Below, piece by piece: positions 1-42,776 of a DNA stretch of 64,000 nucleotides. Every line of letters starts with the position of its first letter. Within the stretch, counting starts at the first letter, position 1. The position numbers and the translations under genes are program-made. This stretch comes from Escherichia coli. Its GTDB lineage: Bacteria > Pseudomonadota > Gammaproteobacteria > Enterobacterales > Enterobacteriaceae. The notes under the pieces were generated by a model. That model saw nothing but the letters and a program-made list of their open reading frames with translations. It was not told where the DNA came from and searched no databases. The DNA is taken from assembly GCF_013122565.1 (NCBI RefSeq), contig NZ_CP053258.1. One strand, 5' to 3'.

Positions 1-559
1 GTATTGGATGTTAGCGGTAATGTTCCTGACCGCCTGCATGAGCGGCCTGTATGTGATTGGGGTAGCGAAAGATATCGCCCAAAGTCTGGCACACCTTGAT
101 GTGGTTTCCGCAGCCAATGCAGTAACGGTTATTTCCATCGCTAACCTTTCAGGTCGTCTGGTGCTGGGCATTCTGTCTGACAAAATCGCCCGTATCCGTG
201 TTATCACCATTGGTCAGGTGATTTCGCTGGTGGGTATGGCGGCCCTGCTGTTTGCACCATTAAATGCCGTGACGTTCTTTGCAGCGATTGCCTGCGTGGC
301 ATTTAACTTTGGCGGCACTATTACCGTCTTTCCGTCACTGGTCAGTGAGTTCTTCGGCCTCAATAACCTGGCGAAAAACTACGGTGTGATTTACCTCGGT
401 TTCGGTATCGGTAGCATTTGTGGTTCGATTATCGCCTCACTGTTTGGCGGCTTCTATGTGACCTTCTACGTGATTTTCGCCCTGCTGATTCTGTCATTGG
501 CGCTTTCTACGACGATTCGTCAGCCAGAACAGAAAATGTTGCGTGAGGCGCATATTTAG
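1..559 (+). CDS. yhjX: MFS-family transporter YhjX, C-terminal portion (gene begins upstream of window)
   Basis: Open frame runs from window edge to stop at 559; multi-pass hydrophobic protein matching remembered YhjX C-terminus; followed by hairpin terminator. Confidence 0.8.
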   Translation, partial: YWMLAVMFLTACMSGLYVIGVAKDIAQSLAHLDVVSAANAVTVISIANLSGRLVLGILSDKIARIRVITIGQVISLVGMAALLFAPLNAVTFFAAIACVAFNFGGTITVFPSLVSEFFGLNNLAKNYGVIYLGFGIGSICGSIIASLFGGFYVTFYVIFALLILSLALSTTIRQPEQKMLREAHI

Positions 560-588
560 AAATATGGCGCTACTAAAATAAATGCGAT

Positions 589-621
589 GAGGGAGACTTC
601 AAAGTCTCCTTTTTTATGGAC
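589..621 (+). terminator. Rho-independent terminator downstream of yhjX
   Basis: GC stem gggagacttc / gaagtctcc followed by T-run immediately after yhjX stop. Confidence 0.7.
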
Positions 622-880
622 ACATATTAAAAGAATAATATTATTCACGCATCAAATATATTTCATTTATTCATATATTACATAAATATAAATATATTCC
701 TAAAAAAATGATCTCAGGAAGCGTTTCTATGTGCAATTAATTGAAGTTGAAGTACATTTTCACTTATTGCAAAAATTAATATTCAGTAAAAACAATTTTC
801 TTTTATAGCACCATTTGTATAATCTGCGCCCTGTTGTATGAACAACATCAAGCATATTTATCTATATAAATGGAGTTTTA
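622..880 (+). promoter_or_regulatory. AT-rich upstream regulatory region of the lpf fimbrial operon
   Basis: Long, very AT-rich, curved-looking tract directly upstream of lpfA; lpf promoters are known to be H-NS silenced; no specific -10/-35 assigned. Confidence 0.4.
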
Positions 881-1408
881 ATGAAAAAGGTTTTCTTTGC
901 CTTATCTGCGCTTGCGCTGACCTCTACTTCCGTATTCGCAGCTGATGCGGGCGACGGTACTATCAAATTTACCGGTGAGATTGTTGATGCCGCTTGTGTT
1001 GTCTCTCCGGACTCTCAAAAACAAGAAGTTGTTCTGGGCCAGGTGAACAAGTCTGTGTTTACTGCTACCGGTGATAAATCCCCAGCAACGCCGTTCAAAA
1101 TCAAACTGGAAAACTGCGATATCTCCTCCACTGCCAAAAACGTGGAGATCAGCTTTAGCGGCGTTGGTGCTGCAGGCAACGAGGCACTGGTTTCTGTAAG
1201 CACAGAACCAGGTGCTGCAACTGGCGTTGGTATCGGTATTTATGATAACACCAATACGCTGGTTGACCTGAATACCGGTAAATCGGCTACCCTTCTGAAA
1301 GACGGCCAGACCGTTCTGTATTTCACCGCTAACTATGTCTCTATCAGCGATGTAGTAACCACGGGTTACGGTAACGCTGAAGTCGACTTCAACCTGACTT
1401 ACAACTAA
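881..1408 (+). CDS. lpfA: Long polar fimbriae major subunit (fimbrial pilin)
   Basis: 175 aa, signal peptide (ALALTSTSVFA-AD), conserved pilin Cys pair and C-terminal donor-strand motif; SD-like ggag upstream; matches remembered LpfA. Confidence 0.85.
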   Translation: MKKVFFALSALALTSTSVFAADAGDGTIKFTGEIVDAACVVSPDSQKQEVVLGQVNKSVFTATGDKSPATPFKIKLENCDISSTAKNVEISFSGVGAAGNEALVSVSTEPGAATGVGIGIYDNTNTLVDLNTGKSATLLKDGQTVLYFTANYVSISDVVTTGYGNAEVDFNLTYN

Positions 1409-1491
1409 TCGATCCTGACGGGGCGATCATCTCTCAATGGCAACAGATTATCTGTTGCCATTATTCACACCAATGACTCAGGGACCGAATC

Positions 1492-2178
1492 ATGAAACGT
1501 ATTAGCCTTACCGTTCTGGCGCTTTTAATGACTGCACAACAGTGTCTTGCTGGTGGCGTAGCCCTAAGCACGACGCGTGTTATTTATGACGGCGGCAAGA
1601 AAGAAGCGTCGCTGACCGTTGAGAATCATAATAAAAATGAAGAATTTTTGATCCAGTCATGGATTGATGATGTGAATGGAAATAAAAAAACACCGTTTAT
1701 TATTACACCACCATTATTCAAACTTGATCCTGATAAAAATAACGTATTACGTATCGTCAATATTGAAGATACCTTACCTCAAGATCGTGAATCCGTTTAC
1801 TGGATTAATGTAAAAGCCATTCCTGCGAAAAGTGCTGAAAATGAAAATAAAAATGTCTTACAGATAGCCGTTCGCACCCGTCTGAAGTTGTTCTATCGTC
1901 CAAAAGGTTTGCCGGGAAGCAACCTCGAGGCCATGAAGCAGTTACGTTTCCAGCGTCAAAATAACCAAATTGTGGTTAATAACGACTCCGCTTATAACCT
2001 GACCTTTAATCAGTTTTCCATTAATGGACAAAAGATTGAACGGGCGGGAATGGTTCTCGCGAAAGGAAAGTTAAATATTAACCTTCCAGCCGGTACAGGC
2101 AACGCGCACGAAGTGAAATACAGCATTATTAATGATTTCGGTGTTGCTGGCGAAATGCTGACGAAGCCGATTAACTGA
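1492..2178 (+). CDS. lpfB: Periplasmic fimbrial chaperone (PapD-like)
   Basis: 228 aa with signal peptide; chaperone-usher pathway chaperone features; operon position after pilin. Confidence 0.85.
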   Translation: MKRISLTVLALLMTAQQCLAGGVALSTTRVIYDGGKKEASLTVENHNKNEEFLIQSWIDDVNGNKKTPFIITPPLFKLDPDKNNVLRIVNIEDTLPQDRESVYWINVKAIPAKSAENENKNVLQIAVRTRLKLFYRPKGLPGSNLEAMKQLRFQRQNNQIVVNNDSAYNLTFNQFSINGQKIERAGMVLAKGKLNINLPAGTGNAHEVKYSIINDFGVAGEMLTKPIN

Positions 2179-2201
2179 TCCTTTTACAAGGCGCTTTTAC
2201 T

Positions 2202-4733
2202 ATGCATTGGATGCATTTACCTCTCTATCACTACAGAGCGCATTTTTCCTTCTCTCTGCTGGCATTAACGATTGCCAGCGCGTTACCTGCGTATGGCGGA
2301 AAATTTAACCCAAAATTTCTCGAAAACGTTCAGGGTATCGATCAACACGTCGACTTGTCGGTATACGACTCACCTGTCGGCCAGCAAATACCCGGTAAAT
2401 ACCGGGTTTCGGTGTTTGTAAACGAAGAAAAAATGGCTTCCCAGACGCTGGATTTTAGTACCGCCAGCGAAGCGAAACGCAAAGCCAGCGGTGAGTCGCT
2501 TATGCCTTGCCTTAGCCGGGTGCAACTGGAAGAAATGGGCGTACGCGTTGACAGCTTTCCGGCGCTGAAGATGTCGCCACCGGAAGCCTGCGTGGCATTT
2601 GATGAAATCATTCCTCAGGCTACCAGCCGCTTTGATTTTAATACTCAGACGCTGCATCTTTCCTTCCCTCAGGCGGCAATGATGATGACCGCGCGTGGCA
2701 CGGTTGATCCTTCTCGCTGGGACGAAGGAATACCGGCGCTGTTGCTTGATTACAGCTTTAGTGGCAGCAATGGACGCAATGAAGGTACAGGTTCATCTTC
2801 AGATTCGACCAGTGACAGTTATTACCTGAACCTGCGCAGCGGTTTGAACCTGGGGCCGTGGCGTTTACGGAATAACAGTATCTGGAACCGTACCGATGGC
2901 AAAAACCAATGGGATAACGTTGGTACATCATTAAACCGGGCGATTATCCCACTCAAGTCACAGATAACACTGGGTGATACCGCCACGCCTGGCGAGATTT
3001 TTGACAGCGTACAAATGCGTGGGGCATTACTGGCATCCGATGATGAAATGTTGCCGGATAGTCAGCGTGGCTTTGCTCCGGTGGTGCGGGGCATCGCCAA
3101 AAGCAACGCTGAAGTGAGTATCGAACAGAACGGATATGTTATTTATCGTACCTTTGTTCAGCCGGGCGCATTTGAGATTAACGATCTCTACGCAACCTCC
3201 GGCAGCGGCGACCTGACGGTGATCATTAAAGAAGCTGACGGAAGTGAGCAACGTTTTATCCAGCCGTTTTCGGCGGTGGCGATTTTCCAGCGTGAAGGGT
3301 ATCTGAAATACAGCCTGGCTGCCGGTGAGTATCGTGCGGGTAATTACGACAGCGATAAACCACGTTTCGGGCAGTTTACCGCCATGTACGGTTTACCGTG
3401 GGGGATGACCGCCTACGGTGGCGCATTGTTGTCGGCAGACTACAACGCTTTAGCTCTGGGGCTGGGGAAAAACTTCGGCACCATTGGCGCGGTGTCGGTG
3501 GATGTCACTCAGGCGAAAAGTCAGTTACGCAACAATGAAAAAGAGGAAGGCCAGTCTTATCGTTTCCTCTATTCGAAAAGTTTTGACGGCGGCACTGATC
3601 TGCGTCTGTTGGGCTACAAGTACTCAACCAGCGGCTACTACACTTTCCAGGAAGCGACCGATGTTCGCAGTGACGCCGACAGTGATTACCGTCGTTATCA
3701 CAAGCGTAGCCAGATACAGGGCAACATTACCCAGCAACTGGGAGACTACGGCTCTGTTTATTTCAATATGACGCAGCAGGATTACTGGAACGTTGGCGGT
3801 AAGGAAAATTCCTTAAGCGCCGGTTATCGCGGTCATATTGGTCGGGTGAATTACAGTGTTGCCTATACCTGGACGAGAAGCCCGGAATGGGAAGAGGACG
3901 ATCGCCTGTGGTCATTCAGTGTCTCGATCCCTCTGGGGAGTGCGTGGAGCAGTTATCGCATGACCACCGACCAGAATGGCAAGACGTCGCAACAGGCCTC
4001 TGTCAGCGGTACGTTACTGGAAGATCATAACCTGAACTATAACGTTCAGCAGGGTTACACCAGTAATGGTGTTGGCTACAGTGGTAGCGCCAGCATGGGG
4101 TATATGGGTGGTTCTGGCAACATTGACGTGGGCTATAACTATTCCAAAGATAACCAACAGGTTAACTATGGCGTGCGCGGCGGTGTCATCGTTCACAGTG
4201 AAGGTATAACGCTTTCGCAGCCTTTAGGCGAAAGTCTGGCGATTGTTTCTGCACCGGGCGCGCGTGGCGGACATGTGGTTAATAGCAGCGGCGTAGAAGT
4301 TGACTGGATGGGCAACGCCGTGGTGCCGTATCTCACGCCATATCGTGAAACCATTGTGGAATTGCGCAGCGATACGCTGGGGCAAAACGTTGAACTACAG
4401 GAAGCGTATCAGAAAGTCGTACCCACGCGTGGCGCGGTTGTGCGTTCCCGCTTTGATACTCGCGTCGGTTATCGTGTGCTGATGAGCTTAAAACAGGCGA
4501 ATGGCAACGCAGTACCGTTTGGTGCCACCGCAACTTTAATTGATGAGAGCAAACCTGCCAGCAGCATTGTGGGTGAAGAGGGGCAGCTTTATATCAGCGG
4601 GATGCCAGAAGAGGGCGAATTGCAGGTGAGCTGGGGGAACGAGCAGGCGCAACGTTGCCGTGTGCCATTCCGCTTGCCAGAGAACAAGGACAATGCGGCT
4701 ATCGTGATGGTTAATGCGGTATGCGAGAAATAA
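2202..4733 (+). CDS. lpfC: Outer-membrane fimbrial usher, full length
   Basis: 843 aa single intact ORF with usher-like beta-barrel composition; not split as in the O157 lpfC/lpfC-prime arrangement. Confidence 0.85.
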   Translation: MHWMHLPLYHYRAHFSFSLLALTIASALPAYGGKFNPKFLENVQGIDQHVDLSVYDSPVGQQIPGKYRVSVFVNEEKMASQTLDFSTASEAKRKASGESLMPCLSRVQLEEMGVRVDSFPALKMSPPEACVAFDEIIPQATSRFDFNTQTLHLSFPQAAMMMTARGTVDPSRWDEGIPALLLDYSFSGSNGRNEGTGSSSDSTSDSYYLNLRSGLNLGPWRLRNNSIWNRTDGKNQWDNVGTSLNRAIIPLKSQITLGDTATPGEIFDSVQMRGALLASDDEMLPDSQRGFAPVVRGIAKSNAEVSIEQNGYVIYRTFVQPGAFEINDLYATSGSGDLTVIIKEADGSEQRFIQPFSAVAIFQREGYLKYSLAAGEYRAGNYDSDKPRFGQFTAMYGLPWGMTAYGGALLSADYNALALGLGKNFGTIGAVSVDVTQAKSQLRNNEKEEGQSYRFLYSKSFDGGTDLRLLGYKYSTSGYYTFQEATDVRSDADSDYRRYHKRSQIQGNITQQLGDYGSVYFNMTQQDYWNVGGKENSLSAGYRGHIGRVNYSVAYTWTRSPEWEEDDRLWSFSVSIPLGSAWSSYRMTTDQNGKTSQQASVSGTLLEDHNLNYNVQQGYTSNGVGYSGSASMGYMGGSGNIDVGYNYSKDNQQVNYGVRGGVIVHSEGITLSQPLGESLAIVSAPGARGGHVVNSSGVEVDWMGNAVVPYLTPYRETIVELRSDTLGQNVELQEAYQKVVPTRGAVVRSRFDTRVGYRVLMSLKQANGNAVPFGATATLIDESKPASSIVGEEGQLYISGMPEEGELQVSWGNEQAQRCRVPFRLPENKDNAAIVMVNAVCEK

Positions 4734-4743
4734 GGATATTCAG

Positions 4744-5796
4744 ATGAAAATTAAAAATTTGTTGGCAGGTATGGTGCTGTTTGGGACGAGCACCTTTGCC
4801 GGGAATATATGGGCGGCGGATTGGGGGCCGTGCAGGACGGCAAGTGGTGATCCTTTTATTTTTACTACATCATTCACCAAAAATATTCAAAACCCGACGG
4901 ATAACGTTGCCGGGCAGACCTATACTGATTTTTACCAATGGGCGCTAGGTGATAAATATTCTGGTGTTTGTGAATGCCCATCACCGACACCGACAGAATC
5001 CCGACCAACGCTATATAAAGCTGAGTCAACACTACCTGCAGGGCATGACTCAACCTATTTTAAAATTACCAATAATCTTGAGGTTTCAAGCAAAGTATAT
5101 ATTGCCAACGTGGGCTATGTACAAGTTCCATTCGTTAATAGATCCAATGTACAGCCTGGGAAAGAGTGCGATCAACCCACTTCGGGGTGGACGACAGGAA
5201 GTAAGGGGCGGCTCTCACTTTATATCGCTAAACCGTTCGTTGGGGAACAAGACATTCCGCAAACCACGATAGTTTCTGTGTATGGTACAAAAGCAGCGAA
5301 TGTGTATGGTTCAGTTCCAATGTCTGAGGTGCTTCTTTCAGGAAAAGTAACCGTAACGCAAGGTTGTGAACTCGCCGCAGGTACTGCGCTGGATATTGAT
5401 TTCGGTGAATATCAGGCGCACGACTTTAAAGATCGCGTTGGCCAACCGCCGCAAAATGTTCGGAAGATACAAAAGGAGCTGACATTTAATTGCAACAATA
5501 TCTCTGATGGTGTCCATATTTACCTTAGCCTTGAAGGTTCATCAAATACGGCTTATCCCAGCGCAATTAACCTGGGTAATGCCGATGTCGGAGCCATTAT
5601 TGAAGATGGGAAAGGCAATATTCTGAAACCTAATGATGACAACTGCTTATTAGAAATGGATTCAGGAACACTGTATGAGGATGTTAAACGCACGGCGAAA
5701 ATCACGATAACGGCTTATCCCGTTAGCACGACAGGAAAATTGCCTACGGCCGGTGACTATGATGGCGTGGCAACAATGCATGTTGAACTGGAGTGA
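4744..5796 (+). CDS. lpfD: Fimbrial minor subunit / putative tip adhesin
   Basis: ATG at 4744 preceded by AAGGA; signal peptide; ~350 aa two-domain-sized fimbrial protein; ORF-track start 4714 is probably an upstream extension. Confidence 0.75.
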   Translation: MKIKNLLAGMVLFGTSTFAGNIWAADWGPCRTASGDPFIFTTSFTKNIQNPTDNVAGQTYTDFYQWALGDKYSGVCECPSPTPTESRPTLYKAESTLPAGHDSTYFKITNNLEVSSKVYIANVGYVQVPFVNRSNVQPGKECDQPTSGWTTGSKGRLSLYIAKPFVGEQDIPQTTIVSVYGTKAANVYGSVPMSEVLLSGKVTVTQGCELAAGTALDIDFGEYQAHDFKDRVGQPPQNVRKIQKELTFNCNNISDGVHIYLSLEGSSNTAYPSAINLGNADVGAIIEDGKGNILKPNDDNCLLEMDSGTLYEDVKRTAKITITAYPVSTTGKLPTAGDYDGVATMHVELE

Positions 5797-5801
5797 CGGT
5801 C

Positions 5802-6326
5802 ATGAAACAAATCGTGATTATGTTGTGCTTACTATCTTGTGCCTTTTCGCCACTGGCGGCAATTACGGATTTAGGGCCGAAAGGAACATTGAAATTCACC
5901 CTTAAAATCAGTCAGGGGGCCTGCGAACTGGTAAAAGACAGTGTTGAAGTTGACATGGGCACCGCAGTTCTCAAGAAGCCGGTAAGAATCGGAACGGAAC
6001 TGAACCCTACCGCTTTTTCAATTGGATTAAAAAACTGTAGTGAAGTGGTCAGAGTCTACGTCACTATGGATGGTACGCCAAATGCGGATGACCCCAATTT
6101 GTTTGCGTTAGATGCGGGTGGCGCTACAGGCGTTGGGCTGAAAATCAAAACCGCCGCGGGCGTACAACAGCTCCCCGAAAATACAACGCCGACACCGATT
6201 GAGTTCGCGATTAATGGTGATGGCGCGCATCAACTAAACTATATCGCCAGCTACGTGCCACTTCGCGCCGATGCAACCATTGGTCGCGCGGATGCAACGG
6301 TCGATTTTACTGTACAGTACGAATAA
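5802..6326 (+). CDS. lpfE: Fimbrial minor subunit
   Basis: ATG at 5802 with GGAG 8 nt upstream, overlapping lpfD stop; signal peptide; pilin-like C-terminus. Confidence 0.75.
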   Translation: MKQIVIMLCLLSCAFSPLAAITDLGPKGTLKFTLKISQGACELVKDSVEVDMGTAVLKKPVRIGTELNPTAFSIGLKNCSEVVRVYVTMDGTPNADDPNLFALDAGGATGVGLKIKTAAGVQQLPENTTPTPIEFAINGDGAHQLNYIASYVPLRADATIGRADATVDFTVQYE

Positions 6327-6337
6327 TTTCACATCTT

Positions 6338-6364
6338 AGGGGCCAGTTAACTGGCCCTTTTTAC
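6338..6364 (+). terminator. Rho-independent terminator ending the lpf operon
   Basis: Stem ggggccagtt / aactggccc followed by TTTTT right after lpfE stop. Confidence 0.75.
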
Positions 6365-6577
6365 TGCTTTTTGTAACGCCAAGTCTCTTTTCAAACTTGC
6401 ATTTTTGTAAATTTGTGCTTCATGCACACTCTTTCCCCACACTTTTTCCCTTTGCTGTGGTCTACTTATTCGCGCGTGTAGATTTTACTTATCTGACTAC
6501 CTCCGCACTTTTCCCCTGCCGGGCCTGAAAAGCCGCTTAGCAGGGTGTTATCACCTGTTTGTCCAGGGTTTGTTTGC

Positions 6578-8269
6578 ATGAGATACATCAAATCGATTAC
6601 ACAGCAGAAGCTGAGCTTTTTGCTTGCAATCTATATTGGCCTTTTTATGAATGGCGCGGTTTTTTACCGCCGCTTCGGCAGCTATGCGCACGATTTTACC
6701 GTCTGGAAAGGCATTTCTGCTGTTGTTGAACTGGTCGCCACCGTACTGGTGACCTTCTTTCTACTGCGTCTTCTTTCGCTGTTTGGCCGCCGCAGCTGGC
6801 GTATTCTGGCATCATTGGTGGTGCTCTTTTCCGCCGGTGCCAGCTATTACATGACCTTCCTTAATGTGGTTATTGGTTATGGCATCATCGCTTCCGTCAT
6901 GACCACCGATATCGACCTGTCAAAAGAAGTTGTTGGTCTGAACTTTATTCTCTGGTTAATCGCCGTTAGCGCATTGCCTCTTATCCTTATCTGGAATAAC
7001 CGCTGTCGCTATACCTTGCTCCGACAACTGCGAACCCCAGGGCAGCGTATTCGCAGCCTGGCAGTCGTCGTACTGGCGGGTATTATGGTTTGGGCACCGA
7101 TTCGTTTTCTGGATATCCAGCAGAAGAAAGTGGAGAGGGCGACCGGCGTTGATTTGCCGAGTTATGGCGGCGTCGTAGCGAACTCTTATCTGCCATCAAA
7201 CTGGCTTTCGGCATTGGGGCTGTACGCCTGGGCGCGGGTCGATGAATCTTCCGATAATAATTCATTGCTTAATCCGGCGAAGAAATTCACTTATCAGGCA
7301 CCGCAAAATGTTGATGACACTTATGTCGTGTTTATCATCGGTGAAACCACGCGTTGGGACCATATGGGCATTTTCGGCTATGAACGTAACACCACGCCGA
7401 AGCTGGCCCAGGAGAAAAATCTGGCGGCGTTCCGTGGTTACTCCTGTGATACCGCAACCAAACTCTCACTGCGTTGCATGTTTGTACGTCAGGGGGGCGC
7501 GGAAGATAATCCGCAGCGCACATTAAAAGAACAGAATATTTTCGCGGTGCTGAAGCAGTTAGGATTCAGTTCTGACCTCTACGCTATGCAAAGCGAAATG
7601 TGGTTCTACAGCAATACGATGGCGGACAACATTGCTTATCGTGAGCAGATTGGTGCGGAGCCACGTAACCGTGGCAAGCCGGTAGATGATATGCTGCTGG
7701 TAGACGAAATGCAGCAATCGCTGGGGCGCAACCCGGATGGTAAGCATCTGATCATTCTGCATACCAAAGGTTCGCACTTTAACTACACCCAGCGTTACCC
7801 GCGCAGCTTCGCGCAGTGGAAGCCGGAATGTATTGGTGTTGATAGCGGCTGTACCAAAGCGCAGATGATCAACTCCTACGACAACTCGGTGACCTATGTG
7901 GATCATTTTATTTCCAGCGTGATTGATCAGGTTCGCGATAAGAAAGCGATTGTGTTCTATGCAGCTGACCACGGTGAGTCAATTAACGAACGCGAGCACC
8001 TGCACGGCACGCCGCGTGAACTGGCACCGCCGGAGCAGTTCCGCGTGCCGATGATGGTCTGGATGTCAGATAAATATCTGGAAAATCCGGCCAATGCGCA
8101 GGCATTTGCGCAGCTGAAAAAAGAAGCCGACATGAAAGTGCCACGCCGTCACGTAGAGCTGTACGACACCATCATGGGTTGTCTTGGCTATACTTCACCG
8201 GATGGTGGAATTAACGAAAACAACAACTGGTGTCACATCCCGCAGGCAAAAGAGGCAGCGGCTAACTAA
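6578..8269 (+). CDS. eptB: Kdo2-lipid A phosphoethanolamine transferase
   Basis: 563 aa from ATG at 6578; N-terminal transmembrane helices plus C-terminal sulfatase-like domain; matches remembered EptB (YhjW). Confidence 0.9.
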
Positions 8270-8360: not shown

Positions 8361-8437
<77 letters not shown>

Positions 8438-8516: not shown

Positions 8517-8612
8517 TTCGACTCGACGTAGGCCTGATAAGACGCGCCAGCGTCGCATCAGGCAAATGTGCCGGCCCATTGTCGGATGCAGCGTACCCGT
8601 CTTATCCGACCT
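8517..8612. repeat. REP/BIME-type palindromic units
   Basis: Palindromes gcctgataagacgcgccagcgtcgcatcaggc and gtcggatgcagcgtacccgtcttatccgac typical of enterobacterial REP elements. Confidence 0.7.
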
Positions 8613-9188
8613 AAACGGCAGCACACCACACATTTCCCTGCCAAATTTGCGCCCCATATCTCACTATCCATTAACGGATTTGTGACAGAAACCATTGTCT
8701 TTTTTTATATTTGCTTAAATCTTTTTTTGCGTTACTTATGGCTGGCGCTGGCATTTTCCGCTGTGCGTTTTAGCGTTCATGGTATTAATCGCTCAGATAT
8801 CCACCTTTTCCTCAGATTTTTTTCATTAAATGCATAAAACTTAATCACCAAATGTTGCTAAATATTAAGCTGATTGTTCTGGTCATGTTGGAGTAGCACA
8901 AATTTCTCTGCTGCAAATAGCTGTTTGAAGTTTTTTTAATCTTTGTTTGTGGATTCTCACCGTTGGTGTAAATCCTGGTTGGCTGTATTGACGTTTTCAC
9001 ATTCTGTTGACAGATTGTAGGTCACGAGGGGCATTTTATGGAGGATCCGCACTGTTACACTGATGTTAATTAGTACGGCATCCCCACCTCATAACGTTGA
9101 CCCGACCGGGCAAAAAACAAAAAAGGTCAGGCAGCGACAACCCACTGCAAAGGGTTAAAACAACAAACATCACAATTGGAGCAGAATA

Positions 9189-10796
9189 ATGCGTATTTCC
9201 TTGAAAAAGTCAGGGATGCTGAAGCTTGGTCTCAGCCTGGTGGCTATGACCGTCGCAGCAAGTGTTCAGGCTAAAACTCTGGTTTATTGCTCAGAAGGAT
9301 CTCCGGAAGGGTTTAACCCGCAGCTGTTTACCTCCGGTACCACCTATGACGCCTCTTCCGTACCGCTTTATAACCGCCTGGTTGAATTTAAAATCGGCAC
9401 CACCGAAGTGATCCCGGGCCTCGCTGAAAAGTGGGAAGTCAGCGAAGACGGTAAAACCTATACCTTCCATCTGCGTAAAGGTGTGAAGTGGCACGACAAT
9501 AAAGAATTCAAACCGACGCGCGAAATGAATGCCGATGACGTGGTGTTCTCGTTCGATCGTCAGAAAAACGCGCAAAACCCGTACCATAAAGTTTCTGGCG
9601 GCAGCTACGAATACTTCGAAGGCATGGGCTTGCCGGAGCTGATCAGCGAAGTGAAAAAGGTGGACGACAACACAGTTCAGTTTGTGCTGACTCGCCCAGA
9701 AGCGCCGTTCCTCGCTGACCTGGCAATGGACTTCGCCTCTATTCTGTCAAAAGAATATGCTGACGCGATGATGAAAGCCGGTACACCGGAAAAACTGGAC
9801 CTCAACCCAATCGGCACCGGTCCGTTCCAGTTACAGCAGTACCAAAAAGATTCCCGTATCCGCTACAAAGCGTTTGATGGCTACTGGGGCACCAAACCGC
9901 AGATCGATACGCTGGTCTTCTCTATTACCCCTGACGCTTCCGTGCGTTACGCTAAATTGCAGAAAAATGAATGCCAGGTGATGCCGTACCCGAACCCGGC
10001 AGATATCGCTCGCATGAAGCAGGATAAATCCATCAATCTGATGGAAATGCCGGGGCTGAACGTCGGTTATCTCTCGTATAACGTGCAGAAAAAACCACTC
10101 GATGACGTGAAAGTTCGCCAGGCTCTGACCTACGCGGTGAACAAAGACGCGATCATCAAAGCGGTTTATCAGGGCGCGGGTGTATCAGCGAAAAACCTGA
10201 TCCCGCCAACCATGTGGGGCTATAACGACGACGTTCAGGACTACACCTACGATCCTGAAAAAGCGAAAGCCTTGCTGAAAGAAGCGGGTCTGGAAAAAGG
10301 TTTCTCCATCGACCTGTGGGCGATGCCGGTACAACGTCCGTATAACCCGAACGCTCGCCGCATGGCGGAGATGATTCAGGCTGACTGGGCGAAAGTCGGC
10401 GTGCAGGCCAAAATTGTCACCTACGAATGGGGTGAGTACCTCAAGCGTGCGAAAGATGGCGAGCACCAGACGGTAATGATGGGCTGGACTGGCGATAACG
10501 GGGATCCGGATAACTTCTTCGCCACCCTGTTCAGCTGCGCCGCCTCTGAACAAGGCTCCAACTACTCAAAATGGTGCTACAAACCGTTTGAAGATCTGAT
10601 TCAACCGGCGCGTGCTACCGACGACCACAACAAACGCGTTGAACTGTACAAGCAAGCGCAGGTGGTGATGCACGATCAGGCTCCGGCACTGATCATCGCT
10701 CACTCCACCGTGTTTGAGCCTGTACGCAAAGAAGTTAAAGGCTATGTGGTTGATCCATTAGGCAAACATCACTTCGAAAACGTCTCTATCGAATAA
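9189..10796 (+). CDS. dppA: Periplasmic dipeptide-binding protein
   Basis: 535 aa with signal peptide; SBP family 5 features; matches remembered DppA; long leader upstream. Confidence 0.93.
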   Translation: MRISLKKSGMLKLGLSLVAMTVAASVQAKTLVYCSEGSPEGFNPQLFTSGTTYDASSVPLYNRLVEFKIGTTEVIPGLAEKWEVSEDGKTYTFHLRKGVKWHDNKEFKPTREMNADDVVFSFDRQKNAQNPYHKVSGGSYEYFEGMGLPELISEVKKVDDNTVQFVLTRPEAPFLADLAMDFASILSKEYADAMMKAGTPEKLDLNPIGTGPFQLQQYQKDSRIRYKAFDGYWGTKPQIDTLVFSITPDASVRYAKLQKNECQVMPYPNPADIARMKQDKSINLMEMPGLNVGYLSYNVQKKPLDDVKVRQALTYAVNKDAIIKAVYQGAGVSAKNLIPPTMWGYNDDVQDYTYDPEKAKALLKEAGLEKGFSIDLWAMPVQRPYNPNARRMAEMIQADWAKVGVQAKIVTYEWGEYLKRAKDGEHQTVMMGWTGDNGDPDNFFATLFSCAASEQGSNYSKWCYKPFEDLIQPARATDDHNKRVELYKQAQVVMHDQAPALIIAHSTVFEPVRKEVKGYVVDPLGKHHFENVSIE

Positions 10797-16532: not shown

Positions 16533-16605
16533 GAGAGAAAACCCCCGCACGTTGCAGGTATGCACCTGACAACACCACGGGGGCTAATCTTGACTCTAGA
16601 CCACT
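16533..16605 (-). ncRNA. rdl: Rdl-type antisense RNA (type I antitoxin), copy 1; ends approximate
   Basis: Minus-strand segment antisense to the ldr leader ending in a GC hairpin plus U-tract (ccccgcacg.. / gggggttttctctc); placement by analogy to K-12 rdlD. Confidence 0.45.
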
Positions 16606-17015: not shown

Positions 17016-17088
17016 GAGAGAAAACCCCCGCACGTTGCAGGTATGCACCTGACAACATTACGGGGGCTAATCTTGAACCCAAACAACT
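17016..17088 (-). ncRNA. rdl: Rdl-type antisense RNA, copy 2; ends approximate
   Basis: Same arrangement in second repeat unit. Confidence 0.45.
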
Positions 17089-17498: not shown

Positions 17499-17571
17499 GA
17501 GAGAAAACCCCCGCACGTTGCAGGTATGCACCTGACAACATCACGGGGGCCATTCTTGAACCTGAACAACT
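17499..17571 (-). ncRNA. rdl: Rdl-type antisense RNA, copy 3; ends approximate
   Basis: Same arrangement in third repeat unit. Confidence 0.45.
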
Positions 17572-37296: not shown

Positions 37297-37457
37297 TTAA
37301 CGGTAATGAATAAGTTGCCGTGATATACCCGCAGAGATTTTTCCAGGCACGGCGGTAGCGTGCAGATAACCATTCATTATTAGAATAAACTTACGGCTGT
37401 GTGAGTTTAATTATTTATTGGCTGAATAAATTGCCAGGAAATAGATGGTGTTAAATA

Positions 37458-37718
37458 ATGGCCTATCATATAGAAATATGGGAAATTGAAGAAACTGATA
37501 AAGTAGTAAAATATGAATTTGGACCTATATCTTCTGACTATTGTAGATCTGATTACGGCGAGTTCGTGATAGATAAAAGAACGGGGGAGATGACATTAGT
37601 CAGACTGGTTAAAAACGATTCGGCTAATAAATTTTATTTGCGAGCGAGTTTTAAGATTCTGACCTGTTGGCGAAAGGGCTATTTGCCAAAAACAAGGAAT
37701 GAGCTTCTTAATAAGTAA
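37458..37718 (+). CDS. Hypothetical small protein (island ORF 1)
   Basis: 86-aa ORF in AT-rich DNA, first of five co-oriented small ORFs; weak SD; no recognised family. Confidence 0.4.
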   Translation: MAYHIEIWEIEETDKVVKYEFGPISSDYCRSDYGEFVIDKRTGEMTLVRLVKNDSANKFYLRASFKILTCWRKGYLPKTRNELLNK

Positions 37719-37731
37719 CTTTGCATAATAA

Positions 37732-38028
37732 GTGAATTTTCCCATTTTTGGGGGGCAGTCGTTGATTCTTACACAGTTTATGTTATGGGTGCAGAAAAAC
37801 ACTGGGCATAATATTAAAAGCAATGCCAATACCTTATCAACCAGCATAGTTATTGATTTTGATAATGATATCCATATTGCCAGATTTACAGGTTGGGATG
37901 ATTTAAGTTGTATGTCAGAAGTTATATGCGTTGAATCGGGTGATTATAAATTAAATCAGCGAAATGAATTCCATACTTATGATTCGCTAAGGATAATATT
38001 TGATGCTTTAATAGAAAGCATACAGTAA
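37732..38028 (+). CDS. Hypothetical small protein (island ORF 2)
   Basis: 98-aa ORF starting 13 nt after ORF 1 stop (GTG in track; internal ATG possible); no recognised family. Confidence 0.35.
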   Translation: MNFPIFGGQSLILTQFMLWVQKNTGHNIKSNANTLSTSIVIDFDNDIHIARFTGWDDLSCMSEVICVESGDYKLNQRNEFHTYDSLRIIFDALIESIQ

Positions 38029-38088
38029 CTTTTTTCTTAGTAAGAAAATAATATACACGAGTATATCTAATTAAATTTAGGATAGGCT

Positions 38089-38568
38089 ATGGATTTTCAC
38101 CTGGATATTTTGCTCCCTACACGTTTCGCTCCAGAGGAACTAGATCTACAAGAGGTTATGGTTCACTGGGGTGGGGAAACCTTTCATCGCGACCCTCCTG
38201 TATACGCCTGGTGTAATCATTATCTCTTGCAGAGATGTAATATACCGATTACTTATGGCCAACCTTTAGATGAGCACATAGACTTTAATGAATACCATAT
38301 TTACAACTTCAATGGTTCTATAGTCGATGAGCTGGAAATGGCTGTGAATAAAGGAAAGGATATTTCAACCGATCCTATAATTAAAATTATTAACAACCTG
38401 ATTAGCAAAAAGTACAGGGGGTGGTTAATCTTGTCATTAGATGATGAAAAAATAGAAGTAATTAAAAATATAAGTTCCCAGTGTTCTTTTCAATCGTTAT
38501 TAGTTGATGGACTAAAATGGGAAAGACCACATGGGGTGGCAATATTATATAATTCACACTTAATTTAA
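38089..38568 (+). CDS. Hypothetical protein (island ORF 3)
   Basis: 159-aa ORF with SD-like aggatagg before ATG; no signal peptide; no recognised family. Confidence 0.5.
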   Translation: MDFHLDILLPTRFAPEELDLQEVMVHWGGETFHRDPPVYAWCNHYLLQRCNIPITYGQPLDEHIDFNEYHIYNFNGSIVDELEMAVNKGKDISTDPIIKIINNLISKKYRGWLILSLDDEKIEVIKNISSQCSFQSLLVDGLKWERPHGVAILYNSHLI

Positions 38569-38585
38569 TTAATGAAAGGAAACAT

Positions 38586-38888
38586 ATGTATCGTGCAAAG
38601 GTTGTTTGGCTTACAGATAAAGAAGGTGGTAGAAGGAGCGCTCCTCCCATCGGTAGATACTATCCCGTCTCCAGATTTCCAGAGGAGCAAACTGACTGGC
38701 AAAATAATGCATGGAGTGTTGTTTTTGAATTGGAAAAACCTAATGTAACCGATGGACGTATCGTTTCAATGGGGGGCGTTCAGTTCCTTTTCGATACTGC
38801 CCCTGCACAATGGATGACTAAGTACGAGGCATTTGAAATCTACGAAGGACCAAGAAAAGTCGCAGATGTATTCTTGATAGAAAATTAA
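38586..38888 (+). CDS. Hypothetical small protein (island ORF 4)
   Basis: 100-aa ORF with good SD (aaaggaaacatATG) 17 nt after ORF 3; less AT-rich than neighbours; no recognised family. Confidence 0.55.
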   Translation: MYRAKVVWLTDKEGGRRSAPPIGRYYPVSRFPEEQTDWQNNAWSVVFELEKPNVTDGRIVSMGGVQFLFDTAPAQWMTKYEAFEIYEGPRKVADVFLIEN

Positions 38889-38948
38889 TTTTATTTATGT
38901 CAGTCAATTTAAGCATATTTGCGACTCAACGCATGTTCAGGAGTGTAA

Positions 38949-39482
38949 ATGCGCTACAAAAAAGTCATGCTATTATTGCTAACAGTCATTCTTTGCTTAA
39001 CCGGTCTTTATTCCTGCAACAAAAATTTTCTCTTACTCTGGGATGCCAATAATATTTATGTCAGTACAAAAAATAATATCGATAAAGACAAGGTGAAAAT
39101 AGAATTCGGCATCAGCGTCAACACGATCAACCGAGAAACGGATGCCGAATTATTTGCTGACAGAGATAAGTATACCGTGCTCTTCGATGGTAGCCTGAAA
39201 AGCAAGATGATAAACGAGTACGGCGAAAATGATTTTTTAATTACCTACGATGACCGCTGCTATTTATCATTTCGTCAATTTAAAACCAATCGTCGTCATC
39301 AACATGACTATTATTTTTACTTCTTTAACAAGGATGGGAATGTCTTCGTCACGGTCGAAATTAAAGGTGAGAACCCGCTTAAATTTACACGTAGTTTAAA
39401 TGATATGCGTCAGCAGTTTTCACCATTCCGTAAGGGTAGCACTTCTCACTCCTGCAAGGTTATTTCTTCAGATCCTTCTTAA
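38949..39482 (+). CDS. Hypothetical exported protein / possible lipoprotein (island ORF 5)
   Basis: 177-aa ORF with SD aggag before ATG; N-terminal signal-like segment MRYKKVMLLLLTVILCLTGLYSC; 3-prime end overlaps the convergent lipoprotein gene. Confidence 0.5.
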   Translation: MRYKKVMLLLLTVILCLTGLYSCNKNFLLLWDANNIYVSTKNNIDKDKVKIEFGISVNTINRETDAELFADRDKYTVLFDGSLKSKMINEYGENDFLITYDDRCYLSFRQFKTNRRHQHDYYFYFFNKDGNVFVTVEIKGENPLKFTRSLNDMRQQFSPFRKGSTSHSCKVISSDPS

Positions 39483-41502
39483 ACACTGGTTCTGGACAAT
39501 CACGACCAAAATGCGCAGCCCAGTCAAAAAATTTACCGTTTTTCACGTAGCGTTGATAAATTAATGCACCGGTTTCTGGATCAAGATATCTGACCCAACT
39601 TGCAGCATGGCATAAGACGGCAGCCCATGCTTGGGTTTTAGGGTGAAGTAAATAGGCAGATTGTTCGGCCCATTCCGCAGCCTGCCAGCGGTAATGCAAA
39701 AAGTGATCATCAGCGGTGGGGATCGCGTGGCGAATACGTTTATTTTCTTTACGACTTATCCATTGATCGTTATTGCTGTATTCAAAGGGGGACGAATATT
39801 GCCCGCTGGTAATGGCATAATCGGGATACATTTCATAAGCCACTAATTCGATACCACTGAAACGCAAAAGCCGCGCAGCTTCGTATTGTGCCTGGGCGCG
39901 TTGCTTATCAGGGATGTTTTTATTTTTCGCTATCGCCATTAAATCAGCCAGTTTTTGTGCGGCCTGGCGATAATTGGGAATATCAAACCAATTGATGGCC
40001 TGCTGATATTGACCATGACGTATTAATCGTCTCCCTAATAGCGCACGTAATTTAACATCCGTTGGAATGATATCTGGCGAAATATAATAACCGTAATTGC
40101 TATTGTTTAAATCTACAGGTTTTAAAGGGTGCTGAGGTGCCGGTACGTTGTTTTCAACAAACGCCTGTAACTCCGGCAAGGTCAAAACGTTTTCTGCAAC
40201 CCAGGCTAAATCGGCCCAATAGAGATCTTTCGCCTGGTAAAACAATGCAGCCGCCTGAAGATAATCATCGCGTTTTAATGCTAAAATCGCCTGCTCACTG
40301 GCAATACGGCAAGATGGGATAGTAACTTTATCTCCATGATAATAAGGGCTTTCCTGGTCCATACTTCCCCACATTTCATCGGTCGGGAACAGCGGGACTG
40401 CGCGAGCATAGTGACGCGTTGCCAGTGGAATATCTCCGGCTCGTAATGCCATTTTTGCTTTTAACCATTCGCTTAATCCACTTTCTGGCGCATCCTCCAA
40501 CAGCGTTTGTGCTAACGAATAATTTCCTGCCCGATACGCCAGTGCTGCCAGTCGATCGCTATAACTAAATCCTTTAACTCTGTGTTGACTTAGCAACTTA
40601 ATTAAACGGTCGCGATGCGTTGGACAGGTATAATCTACAAGGTCTTCAGTACAGGCTTCGCTAACATACCCCCAGTCATGACGAATAAAGAGCTCTGCGA
40701 TTACCAGTTGCTGAACCAGTGGATCATCAATAACCGATTCCAGCAGTGGTAAATTTTTCTCCCTGGTTAGATATAGCGAAATCATTCGTAACGAAGCTTT
40801 CCCGGAGGGCGAACCCTGGGCCGCTTGCCGGGCATAAATTTTTACTGCCGCAGCGACATCACCTTTTTTCAGATAATAATGCCCAATCTGACCGAGACTG
40901 GCGAGAGAGAGCTGCTCAGGATCGGCTGCGCCATTACGGACCTCTTCAATGATTTGCTGATAACGTTGTATGGCCTGCTCAGCAATTTCCTGATTAAAGC
41001 CGCCTTTATTGATTATAAGATCGAGATTGTCGTCAGTGGCATCAAATCCCCCTCTTGCCAGACTATATAGCGCAGCAAGACGCCATTCCCCTTGCTCTGT
41101 TTTCGGTAAGGCTAATAATTGCTGAAAGTAAGGGCTATCGTATTTTCCCTGATGAAAATCCTTAGCTCCTGAATAATAAAGCCACTGCGCATCAGATAAT
41201 GGTTTCTGCAATTTTTGCGCGATTTCCAGTGACCTATTTTGCACAGGAGACTCAGCATCATCATCTGTATTTTCCTGCGTTGCCTCCGCGGGCGTATTTT
41301 CATGCCATATTGGTAAACCAGGATCGCGTTTAGCCAACTGTTGTACTTCAAAGACAAAACTGCCATTTGGCATTTCCAGCAGTGCGCTATTGCGGTCAGT
41401 TAACAGATGGTTAGGAATAAATGGTCCACAGGCATTAACATTGGCGCTAATTAGTGAGAGAAATACAATAACGGAAATCCGCGATCTATTAGGGGATAAC
41501 AT
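39460..41502 (-). CDS. Hypothetical ~680 aa putative lipoprotein with helical-repeat (TPR-like) character
   Basis: Long intact ORF; likely start is ATG at 41502 preceded by strong SD aaggagag, giving signal peptide MLSPNRSRISVIVFLSLISANVNA-C; ORF-track GTG start at 41565 is an alternative; overlaps upstream gene stop; not present at this locus in K-12 as I remember it. Confidence 0.7.
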   Translation of the reverse strand: MLSPNRSRISVIVFLSLISANVNACGPFIPNHLLTDRNSALLEMPNGSFVFEVQQLAKRDPGLPIWHENTPAEATQENTDDDAESPVQNRSLEIAQKLQKPLSDAQWLYYSGAKDFHQGKYDSPYFQQLLALPKTEQGEWRLAALYSLARGGFDATDDNLDLIINKGGFNQEIAEQAIQRYQQIIEEVRNGAADPEQLSLASLGQIGHYYLKKGDVAAAVKIYARQAAQGSPSGKASLRMISLYLTREKNLPLLESVIDDPLVQQLVIAELFIRHDWGYVSEACTEDLVDYTCPTHRDRLIKLLSQHRVKGFSYSDRLAALAYRAGNYSLAQTLLEDAPESGLSEWLKAKMALRAGDIPLATRHYARAVPLFPTDEMWGSMDQESPYYHGDKVTIPSCRIASEQAILALKRDDYLQAAALFYQAKDLYWADLAWVAENVLTLPELQAFVENNVPAPQHPLKPVDLNNSNYGYYISPDIIPTDVKLRALLGRRLIRHGQYQQAINWFDIPNYRQAAQKLADLMAIAKNKNIPDKQRAQAQYEAARLLRFSGIELVAYEMYPDYAITSGQYSSPFEYSNNDQWISRKENKRIRHAIPTADDHFLHYRWQAAEWAEQSAYLLHPKTQAWAAVLCHAASWVRYLDPETGALIYQRYVKNGKFFDWAAHFGRDCPEPVFKKDLKK

Positions 41503-42694
41503 TGAACTCTCCTTGTATTTTTTTATTGCAGCGCGCCCATCCCAGCGGACTGCTTTCTCCGGCACGCAGCTGCCTGTCGCTTATCCTTACAAAATGCAGG
41601 CTGGATGAGCCAGGTTGCACCTGATAGTGGCTTACTCCATCAGCGAATAGACAATCTGCATTGGGCAGAATTATTTGTTTTGGCAACGGCGCATCAATTA
41701 CGCCGCTGTTTTTAAAGGCCAGATCAAAAAGTTGCTTGTCTGTATGTTGAGTAATTATTAACGACCAGCGCGGAGTCAGCGGTTGATGTCGAATCACGGC
41801 TTCCAGTGTTGTCAGTGACCAGGCGCGGCGATCGCCTGCTAACGGTAGCCGAAACCATACCAACCCCTGTAATCCACGCGGTGGTTGCTGTTCTATATAT
41901 TGAATAAACTCGGCAATCGTTTGTGGAGATACACTTAGTTCTTGCATTTCATCAGCAACGTATAGCGGGGATTCGCTTTCGACACGATTATCACTGGTGA
42001 GTGCGGAGCCATAAGCGGGCAATGCGATGAAAAAAGGGTGCGTGGTTTGCCTGGCATATTGCTTTACCCAACGCTGCGCCAGACTGACATCTAACAGGCC
42101 TTTTTCGGGCGACAGCACGTTATGTACCTGGAAAACCGAAGTGTCCGCAATCCGCAATAATCGAGCGAGATGTGGTGATTCAAGCCAGGTGGGCAGGGCG
42201 GTAACGCTGAGTTTTAGATTTGTGGGAAGTGCCTGATGTAACGCACTAAGTAGGGTCTGATATTCCGGCAATTTTGCTGTTGGCGCGTCATAATCAATTT
42301 CCACCCCTGCCAGTGTAATACCTGCGTTTTGCCACTCACGTTGGGTTTGTTGAATATGCTGTATTATTTGCTGGTTATTAAGCCCTGTTAGCTGACCATC
42401 GAGTCGCGCGACCAGCCAGACCGGGCGACCATCCTGCTTAATAAGCGAAGTATTCACCGCAAAATGTCGGATGCCTTCCTGTAGATGAAATTGCATCCCG
42501 AGTATGCGCAGTGTAGAAAAAAGTGAACGGCTTTGTTTTAGAGCGCTGGTATGTTCTGCTGTCCATACACGTTGCCAGATATAGGCTTGCTGATCAAAGC
42601 GAAGCGGCTGTGAGGGGGTAAATAAATTATGCAGCCCATAACCCAGGCAGATCAGAAGAAGTGAAGCTGCAATAATCCTTTTGCAAGATGGCAT
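41489..42694 (-). CDS. Hypothetical secreted protein (~400 aa)
   Basis: 401-aa ORF with N-terminal signal peptide MPSCKRIIAASLLLICLGYGL; lies just downstream of the kdgK terminator on the same strand; stop overlaps next gene start. Confidence 0.7.
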   Translation of the reverse strand: MPSCKRIIAASLLLICLGYGLHNLFTPSQPLRFDQQAYIWQRVWTAEHTSALKQSRSLFSTLRILGMQFHLQEGIRHFAVNTSLIKQDGRPVWLVARLDGQLTGLNNQQIIQHIQQTQREWQNAGITLAGVEIDYDAPTAKLPEYQTLLSALHQALPTNLKLSVTALPTWLESPHLARLLRIADTSVFQVHNVLSPEKGLLDVSLAQRWVKQYARQTTHPFFIALPAYGSALTSDNRVESESPLYVADEMQELSVSPQTIAEFIQYIEQQPPRGLQGLVWFRLPLAGDRRAWSLTTLEAVIRHQPLTPRWSLIITQHTDKQLFDLAFKNSGVIDAPLPKQIILPNADCLFADGVSHYQVQPGSSSLHFVRISDRQLRAGESSPLGWARCNKKIQGEFNVIP

Positions 42695-42747
42695 ATTGTC
42701 ACGGCATAACGATCATCAACAGGGCGGTAGTGTACTGCCGAAACTAT

Positions 42748-42776
42748 TAACGGAGAACGAATATCTACCCGTTCTC
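42748..42776 (-). terminator. Hairpin terminator after kdgK
   Basis: Stem cggagaacg / cgttctccg immediately downstream of kdgK stop on the minus strand. Confidence 0.55.

Follow-up and report, generated by a model that had tools for sequence, protein, structure and literature searches.

A chromosomal lpfABCDE fimbrial operon at the yhjX-eptB site of Escherichia coli with rare pilin and tip-adhesin genes

Long polar fimbriae (Lpf) are recognised as a colonisation factor and serve in the typing of pathogenic E. coli, and the lpfABCDE operon of Salmonella enterica is the founding member of the family. Here, we compare the described systems with a locus found in a 64,000-nucleotide stretch of an E. 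coli genome (assembly GCF_013122565.1, contig NZ_CP053258.1), which we call the window. The Salmonella operon has the same gene order, lies directly upstream of eptB and passes the NCBIfam Lpf models, but its lpfA-C are only about 71-73% identical to those of the window at the nucleotide level, LpfD is 47% identical in amino acids, and yhjX is missing from the left flank. The lpf1 operon of E. coli O157:H7 (O-island 141, lpfABCC'DE) shares the chromosomal site and the five-gene plan with the window, yet it represents a deeply different lineage: amino acid identities are 71% for LpfA, 65% for LpfB, 68% for LpfC, 38% for LpfD and 44% for LpfE. The O157 operon is about as far from the window as those of Salmonella and Enterobacter. 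The initial annotation had regarded the operon as an allelic variant of the lpf1 island, which is right as to site and family; from O157 lpf1, with which it had been compared, the operon is very distant (65-71% for LpfA-C, 38-44% for LpfD and LpfE).

Much closer are two other types. The lpfA1-2 type (L001, strain 2013C_3964), known from non-O157 STEC and EHEC-2/EPEC-2, has the same site, gene order and gene sizes, and an intact usher. Its LpfB and LpfC are 98% identical to those of the window and its LpfE 90%, whereas LpfD reaches only 62% and its lectin domain about 41-49%. In the adherent-invasive strains LF82/NRG857c, the site and organisation are again the same, and the LpfD lectin domain is of the same class as in the window (86% amino acid identity), with identities to LF82 of 87% for LpfA, 96% for LpfC and 89% for LpfE, and a dS of about 0.8 in the lpfD-lpfE region. 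Since LpfA and LpfD of the window are 10-14% different from the closest proteins that have been studied, the receptor and antigenic properties of the latter are not transferable with certainty. Type 1 fimbriae (fimAICDFGH) follow the same assembly logic (LpfC-FimD, E = 1e-212; LpfB-FimC, E = 1e-44), but they are encoded at another locus and, unlike lpf, possess the invertible fimS switch, recombinases and a larger set of minor subunits. The LpfD score against the FimH model is 85.7 bits vs. a cut-off of 472, and the adhesin is thus not FimH. Taken together, the comparisons leave us highly confident that the locus is a chromosomal lpfABCDE chaperone-usher operon in the canonical position of lpf1 (O-island 141) and that its clade is the lpfA1-2/LF82 one, not that of O157.

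Gene content and boundaries of the locus

Five open reading frames on the + strand, all intact, lie between yhjX and eptB in the order lpfA-lpfB-lpfC-lpfD-lpfE; the ORFs, their Pfam domains and the flanks bear out the five-gene chaperone-usher operon that the initial annotation had read from the sequence. On the left, the 3′ part of yhjX (8..559, +) encodes an MFS transporter (Pfam MFS_1; annotated yhjX in matching genomes) and shares 97.6% identity with K-12 as far as position 553; the junction sits just before the stop codon, so that the final codons are not those of K-12. On the right, eptB (6578..8269, +) encodes Kdo2-lipid A phosphoethanolamine transferase (NCBIfam PRK11560, 1161 bits) and is so annotated in all matching genomes. 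A blastn comparison with K-12 TG1, along with reading of the junction sequences, delimited the segment absent from K-12 to 554..6339 (5,786 bp, +), in place of which K-12 carries 96 bp within a yhjX-eptB spacer of 323 bp. The bounds of 560-6365 proposed initially were therefore a good approximation, and the K-12 spacer is indeed short. At the borders of the segment, a repeat search and the ORF list revealed no direct repeats, integrase, IS element or mobility genes, and Rfam gave no RNA family within the operon.

The flanks of the window are 97-98% identical to E. coli vs. 75-89% to "unclassified Escherichia", which identifies the source as E. coli and not a cryptic clade, though of a lineage at most about 98% identical to any complete RefSeq genome. 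Complete E. coli genomes with the operon annotated at the yhjX-eptB site, in the same order and with the same flanks, number in the hundreds. This site (yhjX-eptB/yhjW) is that of lpf1, and O157:H7, LF82 and the lpfA1-2-type strain share the arrangement.

All five proteins exceed the NCBIfam equivalog cut-offs for LpfA-E, which supports the initial assignment to lpf1-type long polar fimbriae, and their exact sequences are already in GenBank under the names LpfA-E (QJU26444-QJU26448); the protein sizes below follow the GenBank starts (350 aa for LpfD, 174 aa for LpfE). The major pilin gene lpfA (881..1408, +; 175 aa; exact protein QJU26444.1) scores 319.7 bits vs. a cut-off of 221, encodes a signal peptide, an N-terminal donor strand and a Cys pair, and in the alignment has one codon more than other alleles. 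The product of lpfB (1492..2178, +; 228 aa) is a periplasmic PapD-like chaperone with PapD_N and PapD_C domains (Pfam) and an LpfB score of 471 bits vs. 360. The two cleft residues, Arg8 and Lys112, are conserved in the alignment with SfaE/FimC, the former lying in GVALSTTR of the mature protein and the latter in RLKLFYRP, both aligned to SfaE. The gene lpfD (4744..5796, +; 484 bits vs. 412) encodes a two-domain tip adhesin of 350 aa, with the lectin domain at residues ~25-205 and the pilin domain at 206-350; residues 25-350 align with residues 1-326 of the solved LF82 LpfD (PDB 5AFO) at 86% identity (E = 2e-192). Although its ORF might start at 4714, the start at 4744 is preceded by an AGGA Shine-Dalgarno sequence and agrees with GenBank. 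Finally, lpfE (5802..6326, +; 174 aa; 298.9 bits vs. 169; exact protein QJU26448.1 with the same start at 5802, preceded by the SD sequence GGAG) encodes a minor pilin, presumably an adaptor, although the choice of this role over that of a terminator is a guess. The Pfam Fimbrial domain is present in LpfA, LpfE and the C-terminal half of LpfD, and the translations of the pilin subunits contain signal peptides and the N-terminal strands GTIKFTGEIV and GTLKFTLKI. The locus thus combines a PapD-like chaperone, an intact usher and Fimbrial-domain subunits, as chaperone-usher operons do, with the five Lpf equivalog scores and a two-domain LpfD homologous to the solved one.

The usher gene lpfC (2202..4733, +) is a single unbroken frame of 843 codons. 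LpfC aligns end to end with the NCBIfam model (1815 bits vs. 1271), its PapC_N, Usher and PapC_C domains (Pfam) span residues 34-827 of 843, and it matches FimD structures at full length. The initial annotation had set this intact frame against the split usher of O157:H7. The O157 lpfC is indeed a pseudogene with an internal stop, so the contrast is real, but the intact state is not unusual: both the lpfA1-2-type strain and LF82 carry an intact LpfC of 843 aa, and of the 15 proteins listed from the LpfC cluster, which comprises 2,323 members, most are of this length. An intact usher is the norm in the lpfA1-2/LF82 clade, and the internal stop occurs only in the O157 lineage.

Upstream region, hairpins and proposed assembly

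As the initial annotation had stated, the region upstream of the operon is AT-rich: GC content over 401-1000 is 0.31-0.34 vs. about 0.50 in the flanks. GC content and sequence reading define a putative regulatory region of lpfA at 616..880 (+), with promoter-like sites at positions 617-644 and at 670-698, and with an SD-like GGAG ahead of the lpfA start codon (ATG, 881). However, a promoter scan gave no more matches than shuffled sequence did, and both sites are therefore weak evidence. The regulatory region is 100% identical in two other genomes (L004 and L005), 89% identical to the lpfA1-2 type and only 82% identical to LF82, so that the bile-salt/FhlA control of LF82 cannot be assumed for the window.

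Two hairpin terminators were found by sequence reading and folding, whereas a simple terminator scan gave neither. The first, at 590..615 (+), is the inverted repeat GGGAGACTT-CAA-AGTCTCC followed by TTTTTT (-15.5 kcal/mol, z = -2.6); with it, the lpf segment likely provides yhjX with an intrinsic terminator. The second, at 6339..6375 (+), is an intrinsic terminator, GGGGCCAG-TTAA-CTGGCCC followed by TTTTTACTGCTTTTT (-16.4 kcal/mol, z = -3.6), which serves lpfE. The initial annotation had taken it for the operon's own terminator, but the same element follows yhjX in the lpf-less K-12 (L006, 2150-2185) and hence belongs to the backbone. A further element, a perfect 13-bp stem-loop revealed as an inverted repeat and by folding, lies between lpfA and lpfB (1436..1462, +). 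Its position is conserved across E. coli types, Enterobacter and Pseudocitrobacter, and one of its base pairs shows a compensatory change; in Enterobacter it is followed by a T-run, and the allele of the window has no clean T-run. It is likely an attenuator or an mRNA-stabilising hairpin that sets the pilin-to-machinery stoichiometry.

By homology to the type 1, P and Lpf systems, we infer the following course of expression and assembly. Transcription would start, probably, in the AT-rich region upstream of lpfA and end at the old yhjX terminator, with the conserved hairpin after lpfA probably keeping pilin mRNA in excess over that of the assembly machinery. The subunits would be exported by Sec, and LpfB would cap each of them in the periplasm by donor-strand complementation. 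The LpfB-LpfD complex would be recruited first by LpfC, which would then polymerise LpfE, the probable adaptor, and after it many copies of LpfA by donor-strand exchange, so that the extruded fibre would carry the two-domain adhesin LpfD at its tip. H-NS probably silences lpf until host cues relieve it, as in O157 lpf1 and LF82. For O157, PMC5357955 cites H-NS/Ler control, bile-salt induction of lpf and roles in M-cell translocation and interaction with Peyer's patches, and for LF82 it likewise cites bile-salt/FhlA induction.

Typing and mosaic structure of the operon

To place lpfA among the typed alleles, we used the primers of the Torres et al. 2009 scheme as given in the supplement of PMC5962669, the comparison covering lpfA1-1, -2, -3 and -5. 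The nearest typed allele is lpfA1-2 (91.5% nucleotide and 90% amino acid identity), but lpfA of the window matches none of the lpfA1-1, -2, -3 and -5 primers. Of the lpfA1-2 primers, the forward one differs from the window at 3 positions, 2 of them among its last 5 nt, and the reverse one at a single position, also among its last 5 nt, whereas neither shows a mismatch to the control strain 2013C_3964; together with the 91.5% identity, this rules out lpfA1-2. Alleles lpfA1-1, lpfA1-3 and lpfA1-5 are ruled out by 5-11 mismatches per primer. To the O157, O145 and next most distant groups, one of which presumably holds the E2348/69 (lpfA1-1) type, lpfA is 72-74% identical at the nucleotide level. 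About 78% of complete E. coli genomes lack lpfA1, and among the 5,426 complete genomes compared, no lpfA reached 95% identity to that of the window (best, 91.9% nt). LpfA is the sole member of its 90% cluster.

As judged from the alignments, this copy is a rare mosaic in which lpfB and lpfC are of the lpfA1-2 type, the lectin domain of lpfD is of the LF82 class, and lpfA and lpfE are divergent. A donor of the divergent lpfE was sought among the members of its cluster, where full-length identity was about 91% at most. Synonymous divergence of the lpf genes is about twice or more that of the flanking eptB. Against four other alleles, from which it is separated by a dS of up to 0.8, every gene has a dN/dS of 0.04-0.34, indicating purifying selection. 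An lpf operon at its usual site is already known, and what is unusual here is confined to the rare mosaic pilin and tip-adhesin genes. One might go further and propose an lpf1 type not described before, amounting to a sixth lpfA1 allele with a divergent LpfD of the LF82 class, restricted to a poorly sampled E. coli lineage, with an antigenically distinct pilin and an adhesin whose receptor preference would be unlike that of the LF82 and lpfA1-2 types, and missed by current lpfA typing PCRs; in this full form, we consider the proposal rather doubtful and put it forward tentatively.

Alternative readings and the origin of the site

The idea that another chaperone-usher family (fim, sfm, stg or lpf2) had been miscalled lpf1 could appeal to the weaker matches of LpfA to FimA/FimI/FimF, of LpfB to FimC and of LpfC to FimD models. 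All of these fall below the models' own cut-offs, whereas the scores against the Lpf models are far above the cut-offs. LpfD shares 86% identity with 5AFO, and the position is the lpf1 site and not glmS-pstS, which we take to be the location of lpf2; the yhjX-eptB locus also rules out lpf2 (O-island 154)/lpfO113 as a candidate. The probability of such a miscall is negligible. Pilin identity and flanking context, named beforehand as the points on which the lpf1 reading would stand or fall, speak in its favour: the pilin is LpfA, and the flanks are those of the lpf1 (OI-141) site. A weightier objection is that the operon, even if intact, might be effectively cryptic, i.e., permanently silenced (for instance by H-NS, and with no Ler, as no LEE is in evidence), adding nothing to the phenotype and kept only through recent recombination. 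A good many of the chaperone-usher operons on E. coli chromosomes are not expressed in the laboratory, the DNA upstream of lpfA is strongly AT-rich, about 78% of complete genomes do without lpfA1, and tight repression of O157 lpf1 by H-NS is cited in PMC5357955. Nevertheless, the five genes are all intact, their dN/dS at such a dS shows long-term purifying selection, and the regulatory region is fully conserved in the three genomes carrying the variant. We thus regard a cryptic state as unlikely, if the most serious of the alternatives.

Nor does the site look like a recent landing place. The initial annotation had called the operon inserted, which is correct relative to K-12, but lpf is likewise linked to eptB in Salmonella, Enterobacter, Pseudocitrobacter, E. 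albertii and cryptic Escherichia; the Salmonella and cryptic Escherichia loci were recovered by a search for the encoding contigs, an earlier, narrow peptide-pattern scan having given 5 loci. A genomic island newly acquired into a formerly K-12-like empty spacer would agree with the short spacer of K-12 and most E. coli and with the higher synonymous divergence of lpf than of eptB. It would also agree with cryptic Escherichia, whose lpfB/C are 95% identical to those of the window and eptB only 75%, which shows horizontal movement of lpf DNA. However, the borders lack integrase, IS element and direct repeats, the linkage to eptB recurs in all the genera named, and homologous replacement via the conserved flanks best explains the movement, so that recent acquisition appears quite improbable. 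From the linkage across genera, the ancestral site probably already carried lpf, and loss is the better reading of the K-12 state; since the 96-bp filler of K-12 gave only chance matches of 10-14 nt to lpf and no recognisable remnant, the direction of change is not proven. The preferred reading is that of a locus ancient in Enterobacteriaceae and evolving by allelic replacement.

The rare allele has little practical weight and leaves the known Lpf mechanism unchanged. It shows that those parts of an lpf operon which encode pilin, machinery and adhesin recombine independently of one another, and that PCR schemes built on lpfA1-1 to -5 may not cover the natural diversity. In addition, the cross-genus synteny supports the view of yhjX-eptB as an old polymorphic fimbrial locus, lost in K-12, rather than a pathogen-specific "O-island".

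The lpf operon and its clade

Five plus-strand ORFs make up the operon: lpfA (881-1408, 175 aa; Pfam Fimbrial), lpfB (1492-2178, 228 aa; PapD_N and PapD_C), lpfC (2202-4733, 843 aa; PapC_N, Usher and PapC_C), lpfD (4714/4744-5796, 360/350 aa; Fimbrial, in the C-terminal half only) and lpfE (5793/5802-6326, 177/174 aa; Fimbrial). The GenBank records place the lpfD and lpfE starts at 4744 and 5802, and a Shine-Dalgarno motif is found at both. These pilin, chaperone and usher domains bear out the five-gene chaperone-usher operon proposed in the initial annotation, and its assignment to lpf was confirmed by the NCBIfam models: 5/5 proteins exceeded the curated equivalog cut-offs in end-to-end alignments. 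NCBIfam models for the related Fim, Bcf and Sti families scored far below their own cut-offs on LpfA-E. The solved LpfD structure from adherent-invasive E. coli LF82 (PDB 5AFO) aligned with the entire mature length of the window LpfD (E = 2e-192), FimD structures aligned along the full LpfC, and the cleft residues Arg8 and Lys112 are kept in LpfB when aligned with SfaE/FimC. Identical E. coli proteins, named LpfA-E, are present in GenBank (QJU26444-QJU26448). We conclude that the system is a known lpf operon at a known site, with an annotation that is already correct, and that the initial account was right in essentials.

The amino acid identities to the lpfA1-2-type strain 2013C_3964, LF82 and O157:H7, respectively, are 90, 87 and 71% for LpfA, 98, 97 and 65% for LpfB, 98, 96 and 68% for LpfC, 62, 86 and 38% for LpfD, and 90, 89 and 44% for LpfE. 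The operon sits at the lpf1 site (O-island 141) yet belongs to the lpfA1-2/LF82 clade. The O157 lpf1 is about as far from the window as the Salmonella or Enterobacter lpf. The usher had been noted as intact, unlike that of O157; this is correct, since the window lpfC encodes 843 aa while an internal stop makes O157 lpfC a pseudogene, but unremarkable, as intact 843-aa ushers are the rule within the clade.

Boundaries and history of the yhjX-eptB site

The neighbours of the lpf segment, the 3' part of yhjX (MFS transporter) on the left and eptB (Kdo2-lipid A phosphoethanolamine transferase) on the right, are so annotated in every matching E. coli genome, in support of the proposed position. The expected AT-rich upstream region was also found, with GC down to 0.31-0.34 immediately 5' of lpfA. 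K-12 (TG1) is collinear with window 1-553 and from 6340 on, and has 96 bp in place of 554-6339. The segment borders show neither direct repeats nor an integrase or IS element, and no lpf remnant was detectable in the 96-bp filler. The hairpin and T-run 3' of lpfE (6339-6375; -16.4 kcal/mol, z = -3.6) recur in K-12, where they follow yhjX; therefore, the operon ends at an old backbone terminator and not, as had been supposed, at one of its own. A separate hairpin with T6 (590-615), directly 3' of yhjX, is supplied by the lpf segment. Between lpfA and lpfB lies a perfect 13-bp stem-loop (1436-1462). Other E. coli types, Enterobacter and Pseudocitrobacter also have a hairpin at this position, with one compensatory change, and with a T-run in Enterobacter; it may act as an attenuator or a stabiliser favouring the pilin mRNA.

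The lpfABCDE genes lie immediately 5' of eptB in Salmonella enterica (with yhjY, and no yhjX, on their left), E. sichuanensis (Enterobacter), a Pseudocitrobacter MAG, E. albertii and 'unclassified Escherichia', and at the same place in Enterobacter quasihormaechei, whose contig ends before eptB. The linkage in several genera is therefore old, so that 'inserted' holds as a description relative to K-12 only, and loss is the simplest explanation for the empty site in K-12. In the cryptic ('unclassified') Escherichia, identity to the window is 95% for lpfB and lpfC and only 75% for eptB; therefore, lpf alleles move between lineages, presumably through homologous replacement. In these cryptic loci (L015/L016; eptB at 8836-10527, 75% nucleotide identity), yhjX is 89% identical, and the striking eptB discordance suggests that eptB has deep allelic lineages or that recombination breakpoints lie at the lpfE-eptB border. 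In Salmonella (L013/L014, 10982-13709), the region 3' of eptB, occupied by dppA in E. coli, holds a phage-integrase fragment and a Schlafen-AlbA_2/Fic-like_C protein; in Salmonella, the tRNA-Pro side of the locus is thus an apparent hot spot for integration.

Other variable elements in the window

In the window, tRNA-Pro(CGG) (8361-8437) is followed by a minus-strand naRNA4/REP-type element (8531-8611); K-12 carries an RtT sRNA annotation at this position, and the difference of about 60 bp indicates repeat-copy variation. The rdlD antitoxin RNA occurs in three tandem minus-strand copies (16536-16601, 17019-17084, 17502-17567), forming an Ldr/Rdl type I toxin-antitoxin array; E. coli 042 has five ldr copies, so the copy number varies. 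A second variable segment lies at 37400-42750, between yhjJ and kdgK; it is at least 80% covered in only 2 of the 5,426 complete genomes, at 88% identity, and about 3.3 kb of it (39419-42746) is missing in E. coli 042. Its minus strand encodes a weakly TPR-like protein of 701 aa (39460-41565) and a DUF3142 protein (41489-42694), and its plus strand a run of small ORFs, one of which (37732-38028) matches the TriTu immunity-protein family. The segment may represent an orphan toxin-immunity gene array; PADLOC gave no hits on it.

A rare mosaic allele

An lpfA1-like gene is present at the yhjX-eptB locus in 1,198 of the 5,426 complete E. coli genomes. Its nucleotide identity to the window lpfA is 90-95% in 636 genomes, 80-90% in 61 and 60-80% in 501, and reaches 95% in none (0 genomes). 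In a comparison with the typed alleles, using the Torres 2009 primers re-listed in the PMC5962669 supplement, the lpfA1-2 pair matched strain 2013C_3964 perfectly and the lpfA1-3 pair matched O157. The window lpfA, which has one extra codon, falls with the lpfA1-2/LF82 clade but is mismatched by every pair compared, with 3 and 1 mismatches for the lpfA1-2 primers, some within the last five 3' bases, and 5-11 per primer for lpfA1-1, -3 and -5.

The 90% cluster of LpfA, among about 15 billion proteins, has the window protein as its sole member, found on two contigs; three proteins make up the LpfD cluster. The same variant occurs in two draft E. coli genomes, with 98% identity over 9 kb in patchy blocks of 93-100%. 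In its lectin domain (residues 25-205), LpfD shares 86% identity with the LF82 class but only 36-49% with the other E. coli LpfD classes; in the pilin domain, it shares about 80-84% with every class. Synonymous divergence from lpfA1-2 is 0.2 for lpfC; it is 0.5-0.8 for lpfD and lpfE and 0.1-0.2 for the flanking eptB. The window as a whole (1-64000) shows at most about 98% identity to any of the 5,426 complete RefSeq E. coli genomes; the source E. coli is of a poorly represented lineage, or one missing from that set.

Judging from the homologous type 1 and P pili and from published work on Lpf, LpfB would be the chaperone of the Lpf subunits, and LpfC would assemble them by donor-strand exchange, starting with LpfD as the tip and continuing with LpfE and the LpfA rod. 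Expression, regulation and receptor of this copy we infer by analogy. PMC5357955 describes O157 Lpf as needed for M-cell translocation and Peyer's patch interaction, O157 lpf as subject to H-NS repression and to control by LEE-encoded regulators, with induction by bile salts, and LF82 lpf as induced by bile salts via FhlA. The window regulatory region shares only 82-89% identity with those studied, and a promoter scan 5' of lpfA gave promoter-like matches no better than chance.

Throughout the operon dN/dS is 0.04-0.34, with the maximum in lpfA and the LpfD lectin domain, which indicates purifying selection with some surface diversification. The sole distinctive feature of the operon is a rare mosaic allele, apparently untyped as judged from the lpfA1-1, -2, -3 and -5 primers.
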